Source: an uncultured Gammaproteobacteria bacterium
GTDB lineage: Bacteria > Patescibacteriota > Patescibacteriia > Magasanikbacterales > GWA2-37-8
Direction of reading: 5' to 3'
DNA length: 64,000 nucleotides
Assembly (NCBI GenBank): GCA_964540825.1
Contig: CAZINT010000002.1
Coordinates: 477-64,476 of the forward strand
Position numbers and translations under genes: made by a program. Every line of letters begins with the position of its first letter. Within the stretch, counting starts at the first letter, position 1. The notes below the pieces were generated by a model. The model was not told the DNA's origin, did not search any database, and was given only the letters and a program-made list of their open reading frames with translations. Of the stretch, positions 27,492 to 43,813 are shown in pieces.

Positions 27492-27598
27492 CTGAAATCG
27501 TTGCTAGTTTTTAACCAGCAAGTTGGTTAAGCAGTTTCTGAATTTATCAGTGTTAGGGGGTAATTTGTTCGCAGCATTGTTTTAAAAGCTTTGTGTAT

Positions 27599-29071
27599 AT
27601 GCGTCGTAAAAAAGTTATCATCATCGGGGCCGGTTTTGGAGGCCTGTCTGCTGCAGCTCTCTTGGCGTACAAAGGTTTCGATGTTACAGTTTTTGAAAAA
27701 AACGATCAATCGGGCGGTCGGGCCAGTGTGTACCGTGAAAAAGGCTTTACGTTTGACATGGGGCCGTCATGGTACCTCATGCCGGATGTTTTTGAAAAAT
27801 TTTTTGCCGAGTTTGGCAAAAAACCAACTGATTTTTTTGAGTTGAAAAGGCTTGATCCGGCATATCGCATTTATCATGGTAAAAACGAGTATGTAGATGT
27901 GTCGGCTGATCTTGAGAAAAACATGGCGCTTTTTGAGGCTATGGAGCCGGGAAGCGCAAAGCAGCTGACGCGGTACCTGGCGCAGTCAAAGTATCAGTAT
28001 GACGTATCGATGAGTGATTTTTTGTATAAGGATTACACGTCGCTCATGGATTTTTTTAATCGCCGTATGCTTGTGGAAGGCCGGAAACTGCATGTATTTG
28101 AATCGCTTGATACCTATACGCGGCGTTATTTTAAAAGCGATAAACTTCGTAAGATTTTGGAGTATAGTATGGTATTCCTCGGGGGAGCGCCCAAAAACAC
28201 ACCGGCCATTTACTCACTCATGTCGCACATAGACTTTAATCTGGGAGTATGGTATCCAACCGGCGGCATCGGTGCTGTTGTGCAGGCTATAGAAAAAGTA
28301 GCCCGCTCGTATGGTGCGCATTTTGCGTTTAATACCCCCGTAGAAAGAATAATTGTTGAAGACAAGCAAGCTCGCGCAGTGGTCGTCAACGGCCAAACGA
28401 TTGAAGCCGATATTATTATTTCCGGAGCCGATTACAAACATACCGAAAGTACGCTTTTGACTAAAGAAAATCAGACGTATTCAAAAAAATATTGGGATAA
28501 GCGAACGCTCGCGCCGTCAGCATTCATGCTGTATCTCGGCTATGACCGAAAAATCGCCGGGCTCGAACACCATACGTTATTTTTTGACAATGACTGGGTG
28601 CGTCATTTTGATGCTATTTTTGAGCATCCGGAGTGGCCGGAACATCCGTCGTATTACGTTTCGTGTGCATCTAAAACTGATCCCACGATTGTCCCTCCTG
28701 GTGGGGAGGCGCTCGTAATCTTGGTTCCCATTGCTGCGGGGCTTGAAGATACCGATGAAATCCGGGAAAAATATACTGAAAAAGTATTAGTTCATTTGGA
28801 ATCGCTTTTGGGGCAAAATCTGCACGATACTGTTGTTAAAAAAGTTTTTAGCCAGCGCGATTTTGCCAGCATGTTTAATGCGTATAAGGGTACGGCGCTC
28901 GGCCTCAGTCATACGCTTATGCAGACAGCGGTTTTTCGCCCGCGCCACCAGAGTAAAAAAGTTTCGAACCTCTATTATACAGGGCAGTACACTCACCCGG
29001 GGATCGGCATGCCAATGTGTTTGATCTCTTCCGAGCTTGTCGCGGGAGCTATTGAAAAAAAATATGGTTGA
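27599..29071 (+). CDS. crtI: phytoene desaturase (CrtI family FAD-dependent desaturase)
   Basis: N-terminal GAGFGGL FAD motif and the …GPSWYLMPDVFEKFF… CrtI signature. 492 aa. Confidence 0.8.
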   Translation: MRRKKVIIIGAGFGGLSAAALLAYKGFDVTVFEKNDQSGGRASVYREKGFTFDMGPSWYLMPDVFEKFFAEFGKKPTDFFELKRLDPAYRIYHGKNEYVDVSADLEKNMALFEAMEPGSAKQLTRYLAQSKYQYDVSMSDFLYKDYTSLMDFFNRRMLVEGRKLHVFESLDTYTRRYFKSDKLRKILEYSMVFLGGAPKNTPAIYSLMSHIDFNLGVWYPTGGIGAVVQAIEKVARSYGAHFAFNTPVERIIVEDKQARAVVVNGQTIEADIIISGADYKHTESTLLTKENQTYSKKYWDKRTLAPSAFMLYLGYDRKIAGLEHHTLFFDNDWVRHFDAIFEHPEWPEHPSYYVSCASKTDPTIVPPGGEALVILVPIAAGLEDTDEIREKYTEKVLVHLESLLGQNLHDTVVKKVFSQRDFASMFNAYKGTALGLSHTLMQTAVFRPRHQSKKVSNLYYTGQYTHPGIGMPMCLISSELVAGAIEKKYG

Positions 29072-29882
29072 CCAGACAATTTATCAAACCTTTAAAAAGG
29101 GGAGTAAAACATTTTTTACCAGTAGTTTGTTTTTTCCTCGCGCTGTTCGCGAAGATGTTTTTATTTTCTATGCCTTTGCCCGGGTGGCAGATGATTTGGT
29201 TGATAGCGTACCGGCCAAGTTAAGCGATTTTGCCTTGTTTAAAAAACAATATACCGCTGCCCTAGCAGGAACTATGTCTGGTAACACAATTATCGATTCT
29301 TTTGTTGACCTCATGAGTCGCCGGTCGATTCCCCGAGAATGGATAGATTCATTTTTGCGGGCAATGACGAGCGACACGGAAAAGAAAACGTACGTGACAT
29401 TGGCTGAGCTTGAAGCGTATATTTACGGCTCAGCCGAAGTTATTGGTTTGGTTATGGCCCGACTTATGAACTTGCCGCCCGAGTCGCATACTACTGCCCA
29501 GCTTCTTGGCAAAGGCTTCCAGTATATTAATTTTATTCGCGATATTGCCGAAGATATTCAGCTCGGCCGCCAGTATTTGCCGCTCGAAGTGCTTCGTCCG
29601 TTTGGTTTTGAGTTGTTGACTGAACAGACGGCTCACTGCCGAGCACCTGACTTTATAGCCTTAATTAAGCATGAATTGGCACGCTACCGCGCCTGGCAAT
29701 CAGCTGGTGAAGCGGGCTTTTCCTTTATACCGAAGCGTTCACTTTTACCTATCAAAACCGCTGCTGATATGTACCGCTTTACTGCCAACGTAATTGAAAG
29801 CGATCCGTTCGTTATTTTCAGAAAAAAAGTAAAGCCAACCAAGTCAAAAATTATCTGGCAGTTATTCCTTAATCTCTTATGA
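29064..29882 (+). CDS. crtB: phytoene synthase (squalene/phytoene synthase family)
   Basis: The ATG overlaps the crtI stop (ATGGTTGA). YAFARVADDLVD and second Asp-rich motifs. Confidence 0.8.
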   Translation: MVDQTIYQTFKKGSKTFFTSSLFFPRAVREDVFIFYAFARVADDLVDSVPAKLSDFALFKKQYTAALAGTMSGNTIIDSFVDLMSRRSIPREWIDSFLRAMTSDTEKKTYVTLAELEAYIYGSAEVIGLVMARLMNLPPESHTTAQLLGKGFQYINFIRDIAEDIQLGRQYLPLEVLRPFGFELLTEQTAHCRAPDFIALIKHELARYRAWQSAGEAGFSFIPKRSLLPIKTAADMYRFTANVIESDPFVIFRKKVKPTKSKIIWQLFLNLL

Positions 29883-30940
29883 ATTCCTTGTATACCGAAG
29901 CCTCCAATCAGCTCCGCCCGTTTTTAAAAGATTTTTTTGCAGAGCAAATAAAAACATATCGTCCGGTAAACACCTGGTCTAAAGATGCATTGAAACGACT
30001 TTATGCCTCGGTTATAAAAGGTAAAATGGTGCGCGGCGGTATGGTATTTCTCGCGTATGCTCTGGCTCAAAAAAAGTCGGACGAAACCTGTCTGCGTCTG
30101 GCAGCGGCGATTGAAATTGTCCATACAGCGCTTATCGTTCACGACGATATTATGGATCTTGACGGGCTCCGGCGCGGAGATGTTACCCTATATAAACAGT
30201 ATGAAGCGCTCGTAAGAAAACAAGACGGCCACAATCCAGAGCATGTTGGAGAGTCGCTAGGTATTTGCGCTGGTGACATAGCTATTTTTTTGAGTTTTTA
30301 TTTATTGTCTTCTTTGCCGCAAACTGCAAATGGCACGCTCAGGCAGCTTATCAGTATTTTTGCGCAGGAGATCACCCGGGTTGGTTTCGCTCAAATGCAG
30401 GATGTCTATTCCGGCGCGCTTACTGCACTGCTTTCGGCTAAGGATATTTTGCGCCTGTATTGTTATAAAACGGCGCGGTACACGTTTTCATTGCCGCTCA
30501 TGCTAGGGAGCTTGGCGGCCGGCCAAACGGCGGCAAATGTACCATTGCTTGAAAAGTTTGGAGAACATTTGGGAATTATTTTTCAAATCAAAGATGATGA
30601 GCTCGGCATGTTTGGCGATGAGCAAAGGATTGGTAAGCCGGTCGGTTCGGATATCCGGGAAGGCAAAAAGACTTTATATTATTATTTTCTGTTTGCCCGG
30701 GCGACGAATACGGAGCGTGCTCGGCTCAAGCGTATTTTTGGCAATAGTTCGGTTGGTGAAAGAGAAATAGCCGTTGTCCGCACCATGATTGAACGCTACG
30801 AAATTGAAAAAAAGATACACACCATCTTATCTCGTGAAATCCGGGCGGTGCGAAAAATAGTGGACGCCTACCGCGGACCTAAGGCCGAGAAACAAATGCT
30901 TAACGAACTTTTGGAGTATAATCTTAACCGATCGAAATGA
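29879..30940 (+). CDS. polyprenyl (geranylgeranyl) diphosphate synthase
   Basis: FARM motif IVHDDIMD and SARM motif FQIKDDELG. 4-nt overlaps with both neighbours. Confidence 0.8.
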   Translation: MNSLYTEASNQLRPFLKDFFAEQIKTYRPVNTWSKDALKRLYASVIKGKMVRGGMVFLAYALAQKKSDETCLRLAAAIEIVHTALIVHDDIMDLDGLRRGDVTLYKQYEALVRKQDGHNPEHVGESLGICAGDIAIFLSFYLLSSLPQTANGTLRQLISIFAQEITRVGFAQMQDVYSGALTALLSAKDILRLYCYKTARYTFSLPLMLGSLAAGQTAANVPLLEKFGEHLGIIFQIKDDELGMFGDEQRIGKPVGSDIREGKKTLYYYFLFARATNTERARLKRIFGNSSVGEREIAVVRTMIERYEIEKKIHTILSREIRAVRKIVDAYRGPKAEKQMLNELLEYNLNRSK

Positions 30941-31764
30941 AAGAGCTTTTAGTTGTACTGTACCACACCTCACGGCCGCGTTTCTGGCTGTACCTGGCGG
31001 GCACCTATGTCGTTGGCTACGCTGCCGGGGGAGTAGGACTGCATATTTTTGCGGAAGGGCGTTTTTGGTTTTTTTTGTGTTTTTTTGCTCTACCGGCCAA
31101 TATTTTTTTGTACGGTATTAATGATTACGCTGATGCTGATACCGATCAGTTTAACAGTAAAAAAGGGAGTGAGGAGCGTTTGCTTAAAACAGCGGAACGA
31201 AAAAAACTGCGGGCCGTTTTATGGGGTATTGCCCTCGTAACTTTAGCGATCGCCATGGTGAGTCGGTCGGGTATGCTGGTTGTTTTTTTGCTGCTAGCTT
31301 TTTTTTACAGTGCGCCACCGCTTCGCTTCAAAGCGCATCCGTTCATTGATTTTGCATCCAACATCTTATACGGACTGCCTGGGTTTATCGGTTATTTTCA
31401 AGCCAGCGGGCACTTTCCGGCCTGGCCGATCGCCGTAGCGGTATTTTTTTGGACGAGTGCGATGCATCTTTTTTCGGCTATTCCGGATATTGAGAGTGAC
31501 GCGAAAGCCGGGCTTACGACCAGTGCTATTTTTTTCGGTCAAAAAAAGTCGCTCTTTATATGTTCTGCTTTTTGGGCGCTGAGCAGTATGATTGCGGCAG
31601 TTACACTGCCTGCCTATTGGGTGGCGGTACTAGGTCTCTTGTATCCGCTCGTACCGCTTTTTTTGGTCAGTCGCCCGATGTTAATCAAGCGTGTGTATTG
31701 GTATTTTCCTTTGTATAATGCAATTGTTGGTTTTGGATTGTTTCTCGCGGCAATTTGGCGTTAA
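30937..31764 (+). CDS. UbiA-family prenyltransferase (lycopene elongase-like, 8 TM)
   Basis: NDYADADTD Asp-rich motif. Multiple TM helices. Last gene of the crt-type operon. Confidence 0.7.
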   Translation: MKELLVVLYHTSRPRFWLYLAGTYVVGYAAGGVGLHIFAEGRFWFFLCFFALPANIFLYGINDYADADTDQFNSKKGSEERLLKTAERKKLRAVLWGIALVTLAIAMVSRSGMLVVFLLLAFFYSAPPLRFKAHPFIDFASNILYGLPGFIGYFQASGHFPAWPIAVAVFFWTSAMHLFSAIPDIESDAKAGLTTSAIFFGQKKSLFICSAFWALSSMIAAVTLPAYWVAVLGLLYPLVPLFLVSRPMLIKRVYWYFPLYNAIVGFGLFLAAIWR

Positions 31765-34363: not shown

Positions 34364-35815
34364 CTATTTTGCGCTACTGCTGGAGAGGCCGTAGTGCTTC
34401 TCGAGCCTCGGTGCAACGATTCGCAGCATGATGTAGCGAATCACGAGTATGGCCAGGATAGCACTCCACCATTTCCAGTAGTACAGAAGGACCACAGGGT
34501 ATCCGATAACCAGAGATAGACTCACATGCCAACCTTCCTTCAGCCAACGAGCCATGTTCCCTGCCTGAGGAAAGTAGTCTTCATTCGTCAAGGCAACACC
34601 GGCCGAAGTGCCGATGGGGGTCAGCGATCCGCCAACATTCACCGGGAAGAAGAAACGACCCCAGACGTACTGTGCCCCAGCCTTTGCCTGGATAATGGCT
34701 ACGGCTGTTAGGGGAATATTGTCGAACACTGCCGAAATCAATCCGGCGATGAAGTCGCTGTACCAGGTTGGTTCCGGTAGCCCGGTGAGGGGAACCATGT
34801 TGGCAGACGCGATGAGGCCGATAAGAAAGAGGGCTCCCTTCCCGGCATCAAGAAAGCCTGATTTCCAGTGGGTCTTGCGGAAGAATGAGCCGAAGATCAG
34901 GCCGATCATCACCATCCCGCCCATCCAGGGGTAACTCTCAGCGAGTTCCCGATGCCTGAACATAATATAGAAGTTGAGGGCGACGGCGCTCCCGAGCACA
35001 ACACCGAAGATGATGAGGTGGCCCCCGTTGATTCCTACTTTGAGAGTGGAATCTTTCTGGATGGGGTGGTGTGCTTGCTGCTGGATCGATGAGATCACCC
35101 CTGAGATGTAGATTACTGCACAGCCACCGAAGTAGGCCGGCAGGAATTTGTACCAAGCCATACCAGCAAGGTACGCCATTAAGTCCGGGGTGTCGCCGAT
35201 AAAACTGCCAGCCCCTCCTGCGTTCGACATGACCACGACGCTTGTGATGAAGCTTATGCTTACACGACCGGCGTAGACGCCTTTGGCCGTCTTGCCCATC
35301 ACAATAGCGGTAATTATGTTGTCGAGGATTCCTGACAGCGCAAAGCCGTACTTCTGCAGTTGGAATCCTCCTCGCCAGTCATCCTTAAGATAGCGGGGCA
35401 CGATCCGAGGAAGGTGGCTATCACTGAAATGACCACCCAGGATGTCGAAGCCGATCAGGAGGAGTCCCAGGTTTACCAATTCGGGGCCTTTGTGCCCCAA
35501 AAAGTGGTAGACACCCTCCTTTCCGCTATGGACAATCGCACCATGTCCTACTGCAGGGAAAAAAGTTACACAGATCATCGCCGCCAAGCCGCCCATCGAC
35601 CACCAGAACTTCTCATGATGGTGAAGTGCGACTCCTGTTAGTGTCGCGACAAAAACCAGGTACTGAGCCGGCAGTCGGAGTGTGAGGATTACTCCTATCT
35701 CAATTAGGAAGAGTAGGCCGATATTTCTTTTTGCCCAGCGCAACAAAGAAATACCGCACCGGCACAGTAGGCGTAGAACACTTTTATAGTTGCTTCTTTT
35801 CAACTTTTCCTCCAT
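34364..35815 (-). CDS. ArsB/NhaD-family permease (putative Na+/H+ antiporter NhaD or anion permease), GC-rich (~55%)
   Basis: About 12 TM helices. Conserved GD(T)P-containing segment. GC is clearly above the flanks. Confidence 0.6.
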   Translation of the reverse strand: MEEKLKRSNYKSVLRLLCRCGISLLRWAKRNIGLLFLIEIGVILTLRLPAQYLVFVATLTGVALHHHEKFWWSMGGLAAMICVTFFPAVGHGAIVHSGKEGVYHFLGHKGPELVNLGLLLIGFDILGGHFSDSHLPRIVPRYLKDDWRGGFQLQKYGFALSGILDNIITAIVMGKTAKGVYAGRVSISFITSVVVMSNAGGAGSFIGDTPDLMAYLAGMAWYKFLPAYFGGCAVIYISGVISSIQQQAHHPIQKDSTLKVGINGGHLIIFGVVLGSAVALNFYIMFRHRELAESYPWMGGMVMIGLIFGSFFRKTHWKSGFLDAGKGALFLIGLIASANMVPLTGLPEPTWYSDFIAGLISAVFDNIPLTAVAIIQAKAGAQYVWGRFFFPVNVGGSLTPIGTSAGVALTNEDYFPQAGNMARWLKEGWHVSLSLVIGYPVVLLYYWKWWSAILAILVIRYIMLRIVAPRLEKHYGLSSSSAK

Positions 35816-36072: not shown

Positions 36073-36273
36073 TTATGCCGCTTCAAATCGTGCCTTGTTA
36101 TCTTCCATCCATTTTTGCATTCCGGCCATTTTTTCTTGGTCTGAAGCGTTTGATGCCTGTTTCATAAAGTCTTGGTGGGCTTCAGCATAGTGAGATTTCA
36201 TAGCATTCATCCATTCTCCAAAAGTTTCACCTTGTGCTGTTACTTCGCACAAATCACAGCTAACTGTTTTCAT
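36073..36273 (-). CDS. DUF1059-like small protein
   Basis: MKTVSCDLCEVTAQGETFGEW… matches the DUF1059 pattern. Confidence 0.45.
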   Translation of the reverse strand: MKTVSCDLCEVTAQGETFGEWMNAMKSHYAEAHQDFMKQASNASDQEKMAGMQKWMEDNKARFEAA

Positions 36274-36341
36274 ACATTTTTATTAATTTAATACTATTTG
36301 AAATATAGCATACAAGAATAATTATGCCTATCTATAGCGTA

Positions 36342-36409
36342 TCGGTTCGAAGTCTCGTGGCCGGTAAAAATATAAATGGCTTAGAAAAGCCGTTTTTATG
36401 CTGGCTCCG
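36342..36409. repeat. ~68-bp intergenic element (copy 1) containing a terminator-like palindrome aatggctt…aagccgttttt
   Basis: About 80% identical to 38112-38179. Begins with cggttcgaag. Confidence 0.55.
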
Positions 36410-36491
36410 GGGAAGATACTCTAACTCGCAATAAATTTGGCTAAGATTGTCGAAAATAATTTTTGATCTTCGGCAGCGATGTGGCTGGAAT

Positions 36492-37091
36492 TTAAAATTC
36501 AATCCGGCTGCTTCTGTTAAGCATGTCCTCTTTAATTCGATCTAGCTCTCCATAGACAGGGGTGTCCGTCAAGTCAGTTCTTATTAGGGTTTTCTTATTT
36601 AATTCTCCATTAGTATTTAGGCGTTCGGTTCCACGTTCCACGCAAATATTTAACATTTCTCCGTAGGCCTCGGTAAATACATCCTTATCAAAATAAAAGC
36701 CTCTTGCCTCAGCTATCTCTTTGGCTGTATTAAAAACGTTATCATCAAATACCACATCATGATTTCCGCTCAGAACGACAAGGCGGCGACCTAATATGTT
36801 TTTTAATTCCCTTAATACTGAAATATACCTTTTTCCTTCTTTAGCGTCCTCAATCAATTGCGGTTGTTCGGTGTGAGCAAAAGCAAACATCAATTCATTG
36901 GGGTTTAATTTTTTAGCTTTTTCTAAATACTTGTCTAACAATGTTTCGTATTCCGCCATGCGTGCTTTATACGGGTTTCGAGTCGGGTCGTTTTCTGGCA
37001 TCAGTGGAACCTCCCGACTTAAAAATCCAGGGTGTATTAGAAAATGTATCTTTTGAATATTTGGCTTACTTTGTAAATTAATATTGCTCAT
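36492..37091 (-). CDS. hypothetical protein (199 aa) with a GNHD metallophosphoesterase-like motif
   Basis: Low-GC island gene. LVVLSGNHDVVFDD motif. Otherwise unrecognised. Confidence 0.45.
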   Translation of the reverse strand: MSNINLQSKPNIQKIHFLIHPGFLSREVPLMPENDPTRNPYKARMAEYETLLDKYLEKAKKLNPNELMFAFAHTEQPQLIEDAKEGKRYISVLRELKNILGRRLVVLSGNHDVVFDDNVFNTAKEIAEARGFYFDKDVFTEAYGEMLNICVERGTERLNTNGELNKKTLIRTDLTDTPVYGELDRIKEDMLNRSSRIEF

Positions 37092-37340
37092 ATTGAAATT
37101 TTCAAATGTTTTTACTAGGAATGGGATTCGAACCGGAAGATTTGCCTAGTTTATCAAGTTTTTTAGTCCTTGTCATTTTTGGATGGGGATGGCAATAGAA
37201 AAGTCGCTTTTTACCATCCCCGTCGCTCTTGGCTAAGTTAAAACAAAAATCCGACCTGACGGGGGTCGGTCGGATTCACAAGATAAAATGGCTCTGGTTG
37301 GTAGATGAAGTTAGAACTTGTTTATAAAAGAGTGCAATGA

Positions 37341-38072
37341 TTAGATGGTTTCATTTCGATTAATAATATATGTTTTACGTTCACAGCTAAGCTGGTTAGT
37401 CGAAATCACTATTACACTTACTCTGACATCTTCTTCGTCGTTTTTAGGTTCAAAGGCCGCGTATATGTAAGTTGCTATTTTTTTGCAATCGCCTGAAGGC
37501 AATTTTAGCGGAATAGGCTTTCCAACAAAAGAAGGTGTAGGGCGAACATTGGGGCCATCATAGGTAGAAATGAATAGTGCATTTTCTTGGACTGTATCTA
37601 AAGCATAGCAATCTCTAACCGGTTCCTGGTAATCATTGCTGCGAATAATGTGTAAAGCACAGGTCCAATTTCCATTCTTTTCCAAAATGCAGCCCGTTAT
37701 GCGCGGAGTATTATATTTATCAATTTCGAATGTTTCATCTTTTAAATCTTCATTAAGTTGTTCCTCGGCATTATTTTTAGTCAATGAATGTACTCTATCG
37801 GTTTGTCTTCCATTGCCGATAATCAATCCAGTTTCGAAAAAATGAACAGCACTATAATCGAGTAAACTTAGATCACCTTGAGCCATTATTTCCGCGTCTG
37901 TAGCTTCAACAATAATAGATTTTTTATCTTCACTAAAAACATACCGCTTAGCTCGACTAGAAATATTTCTAGCGGTAACACCATACACGGCAATAATTTC
38001 TTCGTTTCTTTTTCCCAGAATAAGAAAACGACCGGGATAGGGCTTGTTTTTTGCTATTTCTTTAATTTCCAT
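37341..38072 (-). CDS. IMP cyclohydrolase PurO-like (archaeal-type, NTN-hydrolase fold) protein, tentative
   Basis: YPGRFLILGK…VYGVTARNISSRAKR…DKYNTPRI…LFISTY blocks resemble PurO (YLGRI…NTPRI…ISTY). This is based on remembered family features only. Confidence 0.4.
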   Translation of the reverse strand: MEIKEIAKNKPYPGRFLILGKRNEEIIAVYGVTARNISSRAKRYVFSEDKKSIIVEATDAEIMAQGDLSLLDYSAVHFFETGLIIGNGRQTDRVHSLTKNNAEEQLNEDLKDETFEIDKYNTPRITGCILEKNGNWTCALHIIRSNDYQEPVRDCYALDTVQENALFISTYDGPNVRPTPSFVGKPIPLKLPSGDCKKIATYIYAAFEPKNDEEDVRVSVIVISTNQLSCERKTYIINRNETI

Positions 38073-38111
38073 ATCTGTTTACTTAGTGATAATTTTTTAG
38101 ATAGTAGCATG

Positions 38112-38179
38112 CGGTTCGAAGGTATGCTAGAGGGTAAAAATAAAAATGGCTTATTAAAGCCATTTTTATGCTTGCTCCC
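38112..38179. repeat. ~68-bp intergenic element (copy 2) with the perfect palindrome AAAAATGGCTT-atta-AAGCCATTTTT
   Basis: Aligned by eye to 36342-36409. The start gcggttcgaagg and the terminator-like hairpin are shared. Confidence 0.55.
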
Positions 38180-38276
38180 TTCGTTGGACGAGTTCAGAAC
38201 TATTGATTGGAAACAGTTGATGAAAGAAATAAGTTTTATTCCAAACTTTGCTACGGCTTAAGAAGAGGAACATTAT

Positions 38277-39221
38277 TTATTCAACTTTAGTTATTTCTTT
38301 TACAGGATACCCAAACCCTGCCCCGTCATTTCTAGCGGAATAAAGGCCCTCGTTTATGAACGTTAATTTTCCGGATTTATTAGTAACAAATTCAAAATCC
38401 ATTTCGCTCGTTATTTGTGATCCTAAAGCCTGCTGATTTGCTACCCAGACACTTTTGTTGCCATTTGGTGATTCCACCAATTTAACAAACCTTCTGTCCA
38501 AAGTTTTAACAGGAAGCTGCTGTATAACATTGGCTGCAAAATAAGCTCCGACTGAGTATTCGGCGAAAGGGTCGCCCGTGAAGGATCGTGGATTAGTCGA
38601 GTCGTATGGAACCATATGCTGAAAATAGGGATCGTAGAGCACAACTGTGTTTCCTTCGGCAGCCCGTAGCCAAACATGTCCAATGTCGTGTGGTCTCCGG
38701 TCTTTAAATAATGAAGAGGCTCCATATATCATCTGAGTGTTTATTTCCGGTCTAACGGCTTTTAGTAATCCGGCTGCTACCAAAACTTTGCCAGCGCAGG
38801 CGCTGTGCCCTTTTTCCACTATTTCTGAAACTCTGGTAATTCTCTCATCACGAGCATCAGAACGTATGGTTTTTTGAACAATTTCATCCAAATTACCCAT
38901 GGTTTCTTCTAAGTTTTGACCTTTTTTCAAGGAACTTTTTAACCTAGCTATCAACGGTTGTACTGTGACGGAGTCAAAATCTAATTTTAATGGTTGATGC
39001 TGTGTTTCTATACTATTATTTCCATAGAAAAAATTTTTATCATTCACGTCAAATTCAGGAAAACCGGCAACAATATGATGTCTGCCTTCCGGCACTTCTA
39101 TTGTTGTTTTTCTTATTCCCGCTTCGTTTATATCTCCAATTATTTTGAAATTTTTCCGCTCTAAAGTTTGAAGGAAAGAGCGTTTTGATTCTGGTTTGTG
39201 ACCTAGCTCAGGGTGTTTCAT
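38277..39221 (-). CDS. transglutaminase-like superfamily protein (putative Cys-His-Asp papain-fold enzyme)
   Basis: GHSACAGKVLVAAGLL (Cys) … HVWLRAAEGNTVVLYDPYF (His, Asp), in the spacing typical of transglutaminase-like cysteine proteases. Confidence 0.5.
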   Translation of the reverse strand: MKHPELGHKPESKRSFLQTLERKNFKIIGDINEAGIRKTTIEVPEGRHHIVAGFPEFDVNDKNFFYGNNSIETQHQPLKLDFDSVTVQPLIARLKSSLKKGQNLEETMGNLDEIVQKTIRSDARDERITRVSEIVEKGHSACAGKVLVAAGLLKAVRPEINTQMIYGASSLFKDRRPHDIGHVWLRAAEGNTVVLYDPYFQHMVPYDSTNPRSFTGDPFAEYSVGAYFAANVIQQLPVKTLDRRFVKLVESPNGNKSVWVANQQALGSQITSEMDFEFVTNKSGKLTFINEGLYSARNDGAGFGYPVKEITKVE

Positions 39222-39355
39222 AAATTGTTTTGATCGGGTAGAGCTGAAGGTTTAGTATAAAAAGTAATATTATTGTACTCTACGAAATAAAAATTATCTA
39301 GATGTACATATTTAAAATAAAAATATTGGCTAATTTTAGCCAATATTTTTGAACG

Positions 39356-39427
39356 CTCCCGGGGTCGGATTCGAACCGACGACCAATTGGTTAACAGCCA
39401 ACTGCGCTACCGCTGCGCTACCCGGGA
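39356..39427 (-). tRNA. tRNA-Asn (anticodon GUU)
   Basis: Manual fold: 7-bp acceptor stem TCCCGGG/CCCGGGA, D arm GCGC…GCGC, anticodon loop CTGTTAA, T arm GTCGG-TTCGAAT-CCGAC, discriminator G. CCA is not encoded. Confidence 0.85.
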
Positions 39428-39433
39428 ATATAT

Positions 39434-41183: not shown

Positions 41184-41879
41184 TTAAGACTTTCGTTTGT
41201 TTTGCGCAAAGAGAAAGCCCATGGTCTTTTCAAATTTGGAAGGAAATATTTCCACGCTAAACCCGTGTTCACGCAGGCACGTTTCGATTAACTTGTAGGT
41301 TTTTGATTTAGTATTGTGATATTCAAGAATGATTGTTTCAATCATGCCGAAATCTTTATCGTCCCAACTGTCAAAAATTACATACTCGCCACCCTCAATA
41401 TCCATTTTAACGAGTGAAATTTTAGTAAGAGCGTACAGCGAGCATACTTCACTCAAAGAAATTGTTGCCACGCGAATTTTTTTGCCATCGCCTTTAAATG
41501 GTCGTTCAATGTAATGATTGTGGTTATCGCCAGCAATCATCAGATTTGCTCTACCGGTTTGATCGTGAAGCGCTTTTGGAATAATGGCTACATTGATAAG
41601 TTTATTTTGTTCGACAGTTGTTTGGAGTGCTTCCAGATTGTTTGGTTCAGGTTCAAGTGCAAAAATAGGTACGTTCGGGTTAAGGGCGTGTGCGTAGAGA
41701 CTAAAAAAACCGGCGTGCGCCCCGACATCTATAATAGGGTATGTTGCAGCTCGTATTTTTTCATCAGCCCGGCGATATTCATGTAATTTAAAAATTTCAG
41801 CAAAAACACTCCTATCCGCCTCATCACGGAGGGAAACCGTAAATATTTTATCATTGAACGTAAAAGTTCTTTTTTCCAT
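41184..41879 (-). CDS. FkbM family methyltransferase
   Basis: IIDVGAHAGFFS SAM-binding motif and the FkbM-like C-terminus. Confidence 0.75.
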   Translation of the reverse strand: MEKRTFTFNDKIFTVSLRDEADRSVFAEIFKLHEYRRADEKIRAATYPIIDVGAHAGFFSLYAHALNPNVPIFALEPEPNNLEALQTTVEQNKLINVAIIPKALHDQTGRANLMIAGDNHNHYIERPFKGDGKKIRVATISLSEVCSLYALTKISLVKMDIEGGEYVIFDSWDDKDFGMIETIILEYHNTKSKTYKLIETCLREHGFSVEIFPSKFEKTMGFLFAQNKRKS

Positions 41880-42321: not shown

Positions 42322-42604
42322 GAATTCCTCACTTTAAGCTGTTTAACGTCATACATCTTTTTTAAGCAGTTGTCAAGATAGTTTCCCAAAAAAACCTTAT
42401 ACATTAGCCAAAAATAAACTTTTAAATTTTTTATGTACTTAGTAATTTTTTAGGATTGACAAAACACCTTTTTTATGCTAGGATTGAACGTTTTGAAAAG
42501 TAACCCGACGATTAATTTCGGCTCGTTGGGCTGCAGGTTCTCGAGTGGAGCTATTTGCAAGCTCCATTTGGAGAGGACCTGTTTTTCGATCAAGGAGTCA
42601 TCAC

Positions 42605-43813
42605 ATGCCGATCCAGTCTGTCGTCACCCCGATCACCTCCAACCTCAGCGATGGCGTCCCCGAGCTGCTTGGGGATGACAAGGACACCGACCGCATGGTC
42701 GTTCCGCCCTTTGTCCAGCCCCCCATGATTGGCCTTGCGCCCCCCGAGCGCGCGGTCCTGGAGGCGTACGCGCGGTTCTACGCCATGCTCAACCCCCAGC
42801 TCGAATTTCCGCAGCCAAGGATCATTGATGGCCAGTACTACTGCGGCATGCCCGCTGGCCTCCCGTGCTGCGACCGATCCTTCACGGTCGACAGGTGGAG
42901 CATCCGTAGCGGTATCGTGATCGGGATTTGCCAGCAGGCGAGTGTTGTTTTCGTGAAGGTGAACAATCACGAGTACCCCGCGGCCAAGCACCTCCTCTGG
43001 ACCGGCTCCCTGACCCGGGCCAGGGAGATCGCCGCCAACCAGGCAGAGAAGATCCAGCGCCCGCCCGCCCAGGCCCGCCCCGTGCGTCGTCGCCCCGAGG
43101 ATCTCGTGGTCAAGCCGACGTCCGGTACGATCTTCCGTCCCATCCCTCCGAAGAAGGTGTTCGTCCCGGCCGCGGTCACCCCCGCGCCTGCGATCACTAT
43201 CACCGTGGCCACCCCGGCCGCTGTCATCAAGGAGGACAAGAACAAGGGTGCCGAGAAGCGCGTCGCCCGCAAGACCAAGGTCCACGAGCTCACCTCGCGC
43301 CTCCGCCTCGTCGGCATGGAGGAGAACGAGGCCTCCAGCGCCGCCGAACGAGTGGCGTACAAGTTCGAGAAGAAGACCGGTAGCGAATTGACCCCAGAGG
43401 ATAGTGCGTCGAACATCTTCGGCAGCGCCATCGACGGGCTTCTCGAGGCCGCCGCGACCTTCGGGGAAGATAACGCCGAGTATCAGGTCAAGATCAGGCT
43501 GTGCCGCTACTACCTGGCGGCCTCCACTATCCTCGAGTCGATCCTGACCGGAGAGACCGACGTGGAGCAGATCAAGCGCCACGACCACCCCGAGATCATG
43601 GACAAGATCGTGAGCATGCTCGCGGCTGTCAAGCATGAGCTCGCGGATCGTGCGGCCATCGCTCGCGCCCACGCCGTGCCCAGCGAGAAGCCCTTCGCTG
43701 TCGTCGAGGGCCACCGCCGACGCCCGACCCCGGTCGCGCCCACCAAGAAGCTCGGGGGTGGTCAGAACGCCAACAAGAACAACAACCAGGCCCGCGGCAA
43801 GCGCGGGCAGTAG
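42605..43813 (+). CDS. hypothetical protein (402 aa), very high GC (~65%) foreign gene, Ala/Pro-rich
   Basis: TTGACA-N17-TAGGAT promoter at 42457-42487. SD AAGGAG 7 nt before the ATG. Strong third-position GC bias. The terminator at 43856-43895 follows. No family recognised. Confidence 0.6.
   Translation: MPIQSVVTPITSNLSDGVPELLGDDKDTDRMVVPPFVQPPMIGLAPPERAVLEAYARFYAMLNPQLEFPQPRIIDGQYYCGMPAGLPCCDRSFTVDRWSIRSGIVIGICQQASVVFVKVNNHEYPAAKHLLWTGSLTRAREIAANQAEKIQRPPAQARPVRRRPEDLVVKPTSGTIFRPIPPKKVFVPAAVTPAPAITITVATPAAVIKEDKNKGAEKRVARKTKVHELTSRLRLVGMEENEASSAAERVAYKFEKKTGSELTPEDSASNIFGSAIDGLLEAAATFGEDNAEYQVKIRLCRYYLAASTILESILTGETDVEQIKRHDHPEIMDKIVSMLAAVKHELADRAAIARAHAVPSEKPFAVVEGHRRRPTPVAPTKKLGGGQNANKNNNQARGKRGQ

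Follow-up and report, generated by a model that had tools for sequence, protein, structure and literature searches.

Introduction

The archaeal inosine monophosphate (IMP) cyclohydrolase PurO (PF07826/TIGR01922; MTH1020, PDB 1KUU, 2NTK-2NTM) is, together with the bacterial PurO homologs of PMC6486802, the closest known system to the second of three genes, here called A, B and C, which lie next to a tRNA-Asn gene in a 64,000-nt stretch of DNA (the window). The host is a small-genome bacterium of the Patescibacteria/Candidate Phyla Radiation (CPR) and is Magasanikbacteria-like. For gene A, the closest known system is the transglutaminase-like cysteine protease superfamily (the clan of PF01841, with TGases, LapG, TglA, PNGase, vasohibins and NATs). 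Gene C matches the isochorismatase family (PF00857: nicotinamidase PncA, RutB, N-carbamoylsarcosine amidase and YcaC) in fold, not in sequence. A sequence-only reading of this DNA had proposed that the three genes form a candidate accessory or defence-type module. The gene-context data presented here largely refute that proposal.

Methanothermobacter PurO has 14 substrate-contacting or catalytic residues, with Arg, Glu and Tyr in catalysis (PMC6486802, PMC6797443). Four positions of its active site, S24, S26, N54 and Y56, are variable between archaea and bacteria (PMC6486802). Bacterial PurO homologs were reported in 22 of 1,266 genomes, and 15 of the 22 are in a pur gene context (PMC6486802). 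Most CPR bacteria lack nucleotide biosynthesis (PMC5113843), with exceptions such as Peribacteria (PMC4736985). Within the CPR, a transglutaminase-like relative for comparison with A is the CPR-C4 protease, PDB 7PJO (PMC9108980).

Results

Organization of the locus and co-occurrence of the three families

We consider it likely that A, B and C are three independently transcribed and functionally separate accessory enzyme genes, which form no operon or system and lie in a compositionally deviant stretch downstream of tRNA-Asn. This reading is built with computational tools on folds, invariant residues, the lack of co-occurrence, terminators and gene contexts. Three open reading frames (ORFs) are located between a 66-aa ORF and tRNA-Asn(GTT), downstream of the tRNA. 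All three share one strand, as had been stated earlier, and this is the minus strand. The features of the segment are:

39355..39427, minus strand: tRNA-Asn, anticodon GTT (ARAGORN; Rfam tRNA 71.5 bits, E 8.8e-15), upstream boundary of the segment
39319..39350, minus strand: perfect 15-bp hairpin with a T-run, terminator-like, right after tRNA-Asn
38277..39221, minus strand: gene A, 314 aa, rare Patescibacteria family with a predicted transglutaminase-like core
38133..38178, minus strand: terminator hairpin and U-run of gene A, copy 1 of a 46-nt direct repeat
37341..38072, minus strand: gene B, 243 aa, PF07826 IMP-cyclohydrolase-like (PurO-like, N-terminal nucleophile (NTN) fold), Patescibacteria clade
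37251..37269, minus strand: GC-rich hairpin and U-run, intrinsic terminator of gene B
36492..37091, minus strand: gene C, 199 aa, orphan family with a predicted cysteine-hydrolase fold of isochorismatase/nicotinamidase type
36363..36408, minus strand: copy 2 of the 46-nt repeat, weaker hairpin and T-run downstream of gene C
36073..36273, minus strand: 66-aa Cys/His-containing ORF, lower boundary of the segment

Hidden Markov models (HMMs) of the three families were run on the six-frame ORFs of 41 loci from metagenomes and named genomes, with 6 A, 22 B and 11 C loci; the distinct CPR loci with B number about 17. More than one of the families occurred together only in the window and in its duplicate L041, which is an independent assembly of the same genome from a second sample. 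Since L041 repeats the A-B-C order, the order is not the result of misassembly.

The intergenic gaps are 204 nt between A and B and 249 nt between B and C. RNA folding predicted a strong terminator after A (-19.7 kcal/mol, z -4.8) and another after B (-18.0 kcal/mol, z -4.3), and a weaker hairpin after C (-12.3 kcal/mol, z -1.7). The strong terminators after A and B argue for separate transcription units. None of A, B and C matched PADLOC-DB v2 at E ≤ 0.1 or gave a significant match in PHROG; IMG/VR contained no relatives of the three families and INPHARED no match for A or C. A conserved three-gene operon or defence system was rejected in view of the co-occurrence scans, PADLOC, PHROGs and the terminators. 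Thus, of what the sequence-only reading had proposed, the PurO and transglutaminase assignments survive and the module does not. It had also seen no counterpart of the three genes in the conserved backbone. The genes are indeed patchy and do not travel together, but B has 76 Patescibacteria relatives, and A, B or C is kept singly in a loosely conserved neighbourhood of relatives.

Anbu-type proteasome-like operons combine a transglutaminase with an NTN-fold protein. Such an operon was considered for A and B and rejected, because the two genes stand apart in other genomes, and partner genes of ATP-grasp or alpha-E type did not turn up.

The copies of the 46-nt direct repeat (36363-36408 and 38133-38178), downstream of C and A respectively, are 89% identical and form near-palindromic hairpins. 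Both are followed, about 10 nt further on the minus strand, by the identical decamer CTTCGAACCG. No third copy of the repeat was found in the window or in the 40 other loci. It looks like a duplicated terminator cassette.

The segment is AT-rich, as noted earlier: positions 36290-39430 have 37.9% GC compared to 44.9% for the whole window. GC content as low as this is reached in 0.7% of 3141-nt intervals, and the minimum of the window over this length (37.2%) starts at 36201. Among the 68 genes that encode 100 aa or more, B (36.5%) and C (37.8%) have the lowest GC and A (39.8%) is sixth. These deviations are modest, about 1.2 to 1.9 standard deviations under the gene mean, and single genes with similarly low GC are present elsewhere in the window (41184-41879 and 25-558).

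The 66-aa ORF at the lower boundary (36073-36273) had been called a DUF1059 gene. No DUF1059 match was obtained at E ≤ 1, and no Pfam family at E ≤ 0.01. The ORF has conserved Cys6, Cys9, His28 and His33 and is 53% identical to L039:951-1151 (BLASTP E 2e-26).

Gene B is PurO-like

The earlier assignment of B as PurO-like is borne out by Pfam IMP_cyclohyd (PF07826), which B matches with 96.1 bits (cutoff 28.1) and E 2.6e-27, residues 12-223 aligning with model positions 1-188 of 192. B failed the NCBIfam PurO equivalogs NF003167 and TIGR01922, with 61.1 and 48.4 bits against cutoffs of 150 and 158.35, respectively. Every one of its 76 homologs has PF07826. The named homologs are Patescibacteria, and the best named relatives are metagenome-assembled genomes (MAGs) of Candidatus Magasanikbacteria. 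B is about 30% identical to Clostridia PurO (Monoglobus). The B-family profile detected Methanothermobacter PurO (2NTK, 1KUU) with E 1.6e-12, limited to the N-terminal 120 residues or so.

Y2, G4, R5, Y20, R25, Y59, N73, G74, E104, D106 and T110-I113 of archaeal PurO (Mth MTH1020) are kept in B, where they correspond to Y12, G14, R15, Y30, R35, Y73, N87, G88, E116, D118 and T122-I125, respectively. All are invariant in the B family, save P123, which is near-invariant. Within the aligned N-terminal stretch of the Mth protein, every strongly conserved archaeal PurO residue is retained in B. Over Mth residues 1-120, the B family does not vary at the strongly conserved Arg, Glu and Tyr candidates (Mth R5, R25, Y20, Y59 and E104) or, P123 aside, in the NG and TPRI blocks. 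Compared to archaeal PurO, B has Ala at S24, Gln at N54 and Leu at Y56. The site of Mth S26 is Asn in the B protein of the window and Ser in most B-family members, as in bacterial PurOs. B differs from PurO also in a family-specific C-terminal block, ISTYxGPNVRPTPSF, which is outside the archaeal alignment.

Judged from these residues, catalytic competence of B is plausible. The protein would most likely bind a purine or imidazole ribonucleotide, and would most likely catalyse the ring closure of FAICAR (formylaminoimidazole carboxamide ribotide) to IMP, the reversal of this step, or a closely related reaction.

Genomic contexts of B

No B homolog stands beside AICAR (aminoimidazole carboxamide ribotide) formyltransferase or other pur genes in the approximately 17 distinct CPR loci. 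With Monoglobus probes, including purV, phmmer searches detected no purE, purM, purN, purL or AICAR formyltransferase in the 512 kb of the window and the CPR loci, L043 excepted. It was thus a fair remark of the sequence-only reading that an archaeal-type purine enzyme is present here with no visible purine pathway. In contrast, the Clostridia homolog in Monoglobus (30% identical) sits within purE-purM-purN-purO-AICAR formyltransferase, an arrangement not seen in any of these CPR loci. Monoglobus thereby agrees with what has been published on bacterial purO, where 15 of 22 genes have pur neighbours (PMC6486802).

The CPR homologs of B have other neighbours. NUDIX genes overlap B homologs by 4 and 8 nt in two unrelated loci, pyrH (UMP kinase) overlaps one by 8 nt and an AAA_18 kinase-like gene another by 4 nt. 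A LOG-family gene and an APH-type kinase adjoin B homologs elsewhere. In L014, a purine nucleoside phosphorylase is about 7 kb and a UPRTase (uracil phosphoribosyltransferase) about 5 kb from B. In the locus of the closest relative (75% identical, L039), B is placed between a 66-aa ORF directly upstream and a RibD_C gene, with neither A nor C. Since this ORF is the 53%-identical counterpart of the 66-aa ORF at the lower boundary of the segment, B and this small gene are the only recurrent neighbours.

From the nucleotide-gene neighbours, the lack of pur genes in 512 kb, the contrast with Clostridia and the lack of biosynthesis in the CPR, we infer a stand-alone role for B. It would be a salvage or interconversion step and not the last step of a de novo pathway. 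The contexts of the B and C families point to nucleotide salvage; the substrates, the direction of the reaction and the salvage role itself are tentatively deduced.

Nine gut contigs named 'Bacteriophage sp.' matched B at about 30% identity. The longest of these records, L043 (MT836023.1, UNVERIFIED, 15 kb), carries purE, purM, purN, purO, purV (AICAR formyltransferase) and purL, highly similar to Monoglobus. Because it encodes a Clostridia pur operon, L043 is bacterial chromosomal DNA, and carriage of B by phages was rejected.

Several observations were made on other B loci. A B-NUDIX pair lies immediately upstream of a Cas12a-Cas4-Cas1 locus in L008/L014 (7473-12741; CAZQUL010000001.1, 1.34 Mb). 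This record and several third party annotation (TPA) MAGs with a Patescibacteria-type B are titled 'uncultured Gammaproteobacteria bacterium', a label that looks generic or wrong. In a subclade of B (L019, L021, L023, L024 and L025; 37-42% identical), a right-handed beta-helix protein of 536-578 aa is always encoded 28-41 nt upstream on the same strand. In L019, L023 and L025, a D-Ala-D-Ala-ligase-like ATP-grasp gene or an ORF of the same size converges downstream of B (Pfam-confirmed in L019 and L023). These neighbours may reflect clade-level synteny or a real link.

Gene C has a predicted isochorismatase-like fold

Gene C had been described as a GNHD phosphoesterase-like protein. The GNHD motif is present at residues 109-112 (in the string SGNHDV) and is confined to this one sequence; relatives have GNFD, GNND, ADYD, GDND, EDFD, NDHD and others at this position. 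Neither Metallophos nor, reproducibly, any other Pfam family was found in the 18 C-family members, and the matches of C to SbcD, DS9 phosphoesterase and phrog_221 were weak and non-significant (E 0.03-0.13). The structural model of C is confident and has a three-layer Rossmann-like alpha/beta/alpha sandwich of the isochorismatase/nicotinamidase type. The metallophosphoesterase fold is a beta-sandwich. A calcineurin-like metallophosphoesterase (PF00149) was therefore rejected for C: the motif is not conserved, there is no profile match and the fold is wrong.

The invariant residues of the C family are K14, F17, L18, H20, P21, E66, L100, G101, R103, R130, G131, E141-E145, C150, V151 and T168. 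Cys150 is within an EAYGE-x4-CV motif, and a second motif, HFLxHPG, is also present. Cys150 stands at the start of a helix, five residues after a conserved Gly, a geometry which we take to match the nucleophile motif of nicotinamidase. In an hhalign comparison with an approximate sequence of M. tuberculosis PncA, C150 was placed on Cys138 with a probability of 0.09%, which is not significant. PF00857 matched none of the 18 members, and the C-family profile found no isochorismatase in the PDB at E ≤ 10.

Compared to the isochorismatase triad, the Cys is present and invariant in C (C150) at the expected position. The site of the catalytic Asp, at the end of strand 1, is occupied by invariant His20 of HFLxHPG when read against the predicted secondary structure. 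No invariant Lys is found in place of the usual one, and E66, R103, R130, E141 and E145 are invariant instead. With His20 for Asp and no invariant Lys, the catalytic apparatus of C is probably altered. C is best viewed as a putative cysteine hydrolase, orphan and divergent in its catalysis, whose nucleophile is probably Cys150.

Unrelated genes flank the closest homologs of C. In one locus a NUDIX gene overlaps the C homolog by 8 nt; other homologs are located between dCMP deaminase and dCTP deaminase/thymidylate kinase, or next to HD-domain genes. Judging by these contexts, C would most likely be a hydrolase of amides in small molecules that resemble nucleobases or cofactors. L032 (3416-5935, plus strand) encodes an 839-aa fusion of a class IIb aminoacyl-tRNA synthetase (Asp/Lys/Asn type), DUF2000 and HD, 26 nt upstream of the C homolog, and in L011 a GatB gene is 1.7 kb from the C homolog. 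The synthetase fusion and the GatB neighbour may hint at a tRNA- or amide-related role of the C family.

Gene A has a predicted transglutaminase-like core

The A family is rare, with four close homologs and 43 representative clusters among 1.84 billion proteins. The closest homologs are 65% and 53% identical to A. The Cys-His-Asp signature that had been proposed for A is real: all 34 family members compared, down to 23% identity, have Cys142, His182 and Asp197, which belong to nine invariant columns in total. The order of the triad is as in the transglutaminase-like superfamily. The AlphaFold2 (AF2) model, whose core is better than the rest, has Cys142 at the N-terminus of helix 142-156, His182 on strand 181-189 and Asp197 on strand 192-197, and its Foldseek matches are 3isr and TglA (E ~1e-4). 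Gene A itself has no Pfam family above threshold, and Transglut_core (PF01841) is absent at E ≤ 1; profile searches and hhalign against PDB sequences gave no significant match. No Pfam family but Transglut_core recurs in the A family, and it does so sub-threshold, in 3 of the 34 members (best E 0.012). Thus fold and triad uphold the transglutaminase assignment, which does not pass the Pfam profile test.

Support for a papain-like/transglutaminase-like core of A extends to the superfamily level and no further. A has no apparent signal peptide. A is predicted to be a cytoplasmic thiol enzyme with a Cys142-His182-Asp197 triad, and would most likely cut or transfer an amide or peptide bond. Of the two closest A homologs, that in L001 follows tRNA-Asn and an MNT/HepT pair and precedes Fic; that in L004 is located between a DEDDh exonuclease and ORF6N/recA.

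The tRNA neighbourhood

The tRNA-Asn(GTT) is the sole tRNA of the window by ARAGORN and Rfam. The Rfam scan found tRNA only, an isrQ match at E 0.56 being noise. Homologs of all three families are found near tRNA genes. A tRNA-Asn(GTT) is located upstream of the closest A homolog (65% identical), and another abuts the closest C homolog (59%); B homologs follow tRNA-Gln and tRNA-His, and C homologs follow tRNA-Ser and tRNA-Lys. Such neighbours were noted in L001 (7251-8954), L012 (5768-6594), L013, L022, L030 and L035. Adjacency within 250 nt was counted in 6 of 32 loci versus about 5% expected, with a rough P of ~0.006.

The 23 nt of the tRNA-Asn 3' end have no second copy in the window with up to 3 mismatches allowed. 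Integration at tRNA-Asn was rejected, as no att-type duplicate of this end was found there. A 12-nt T-loop-like string, cggttcgaatcc, lies between B and C (~37130) and does not extend to a longer match. The annotated flanking genes (DUF6938, FkbM methyltransferase and Na+/H+ exchanger) include no integrase.

Some genes are shared with the neighbourhoods of relatives: a glyoxalase near C, TspO near A, and 66-aa and 160-aa ORFs near B. These scattered shared neighbours fit long residence with shuffling better than recent acquisition. The segment is best read as a long-standing, rearrangement-prone, tRNA-proximal neighbourhood of patchy genes and not as a recently integrated element.

Discussion

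The alternative that survives best is that B and C cooperate loosely in the salvage or housecleaning of nucleotides in this genome, with A as a bystander; for example, C might deamidate or hydrolyse a base or nucleotide derivative and the product might feed B. B and C are adjacent on the same strand and have the lowest GC of the window, and both families are independently coupled to NUDIX and found near nucleotide kinases or deaminases. However, no other of the 17 B loci and 11 C loci has both genes, and in the window a strong terminator and the 249-nt gap stand between them. Because NUDIX genes are common in these genomes, the shared neighbours may be a coincidence. We regard the pair as unlikely.

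It is also conceivable, with quite a low probability, that the segment is a horizontally acquired islet at the 3' side of tRNA-Asn with A, B and C as unrelated cargo. The lowest-GC stretch of the window immediately 3' of the tRNA, the recurrent tRNA adjacency of homologs and the 46-nt repeat after two of the three genes agree with this idea. They have to be set against the absence of an integrase or transposase among the annotated flanking genes, the unduplicated tRNA 3' end, the lack of phage or plasmid relatives, and the preservation by relatives of the same genes, with the glyoxalase, TspO and the 66-aa and 160-aa ORFs, within broadly the same region. An anti-phage or toxic nucleotide-depleting or nucleotide-modifying module is highly improbable: the genes are co-located beside a tRNA, low in GC and patchy, and single homologs of A and B adjoin MNT/HepT with Fic and Cas12a-Cas4-Cas1, respectively, but the trio does not recur in 41 loci, has no PADLOC or PHROG match and is split into separate transcription units, C is no phosphoesterase, and the contexts of B are housekeeping nucleotide genes.

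Several points weigh against our preferred reading of three separate accessory enzyme genes. About 6-8 kb was visible on each side of a homolog, and several contigs, such as L012 and L039, end close to the gene. The search for AICAR formyltransferase and other pur genes covered 512 kb of window and loci. The C-terminal half of B did not align to archaeal PurO in the profile search. The comparison of active-site residues is partial, and PurO catalysis may or may not be retained. Model confidence for A is low overall (predicted local distance difference test, pLDDT, 57), and the folds assigned to A and C have no significant sequence-level support in profile searches, hhalign or Pfam scans of the families. 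Finally, the adjacency of B and C here, together with the NUDIX and nucleotide-gene neighbours of both families elsewhere, leaves room for a functional link between them in this genome.

Other features of the window

The window also contains genes for NrdD, PyrD, topoisomerase IB, a MacB-type ABC exporter, MetRS, TatD and F-type ATP synthase. A 483-aa polytopic membrane protein with no Pfam match (34364-35815, minus strand; 53% GC, and 64% GC at third codon positions, GC3) adjoins the low-GC segment. At 42545-43813 on the plus strand, a 422-aa Ala/Pro-rich ORF has 64% GC and 84% GC3 in a genome of 45% GC, and no Pfam match. High-GC DNA typically has long ORFs on both of its strands. This ORF looks like a foreign or low-complexity protein. 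A four-gene isoprenoid cluster at 27593-31764 (plus strand) encodes a phytoene-desaturase-like amine oxidase, a squalene/phytoene synthase, a polyprenyl synthetase and a UbiA prenyltransferase. One would not expect a reduced Patescibacteria genome to carry a pathway of the carotenoid or squalene type.

Implications

As a module the trio is unimportant, since the juxtaposition is confined to one genome. Its value is modest and lies in the separate families. Two families with no Pfam family of their own gain a fold-level annotation, as a transglutaminase-like thiol enzyme and a divergent isochorismatase-like hydrolase, and C is no longer to be annotated as a GNHD phosphoesterase, an error that its motif invites.

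A bolder proposal, which we hold to be rather doubtful, joins two claims: that the B clade is an enzyme freed from de novo purine synthesis and used in salvage, and that C uses the isochorismatase fold for a variant of catalysis that has not been described before. B may convert scavenged AICAR- or FAICAR-type ribotides to IMP, or may open IMP, perhaps with NUDIX hydrolases and nucleotide kinases. C may work with Cys150 alone of the usual triad, the Asp being replaced by His and the Lys absent. If this is true, the neighbourhoods of C (tRNA, aminoacyl-tRNA synthetase, GatB and NUDIX) would be a sign of a new enzymatic activity, the hydrolysis of an amide in a nucleotide- or tRNA-linked substrate.

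A, B and C are likely to add members to known superfamilies, with C a divergent one, and the orphaned Patescibacteria PurO-like clade is probably the one matter of interest to specialists. It adds to the PurO-like family a well-populated Patescibacteria clade outside purine-pathway neighbourhoods. The presence of this clade in the CPR raises the question of nucleotide salvage in host-dependent bacteria that are mostly unable to make nucleotides (PMC5113843).

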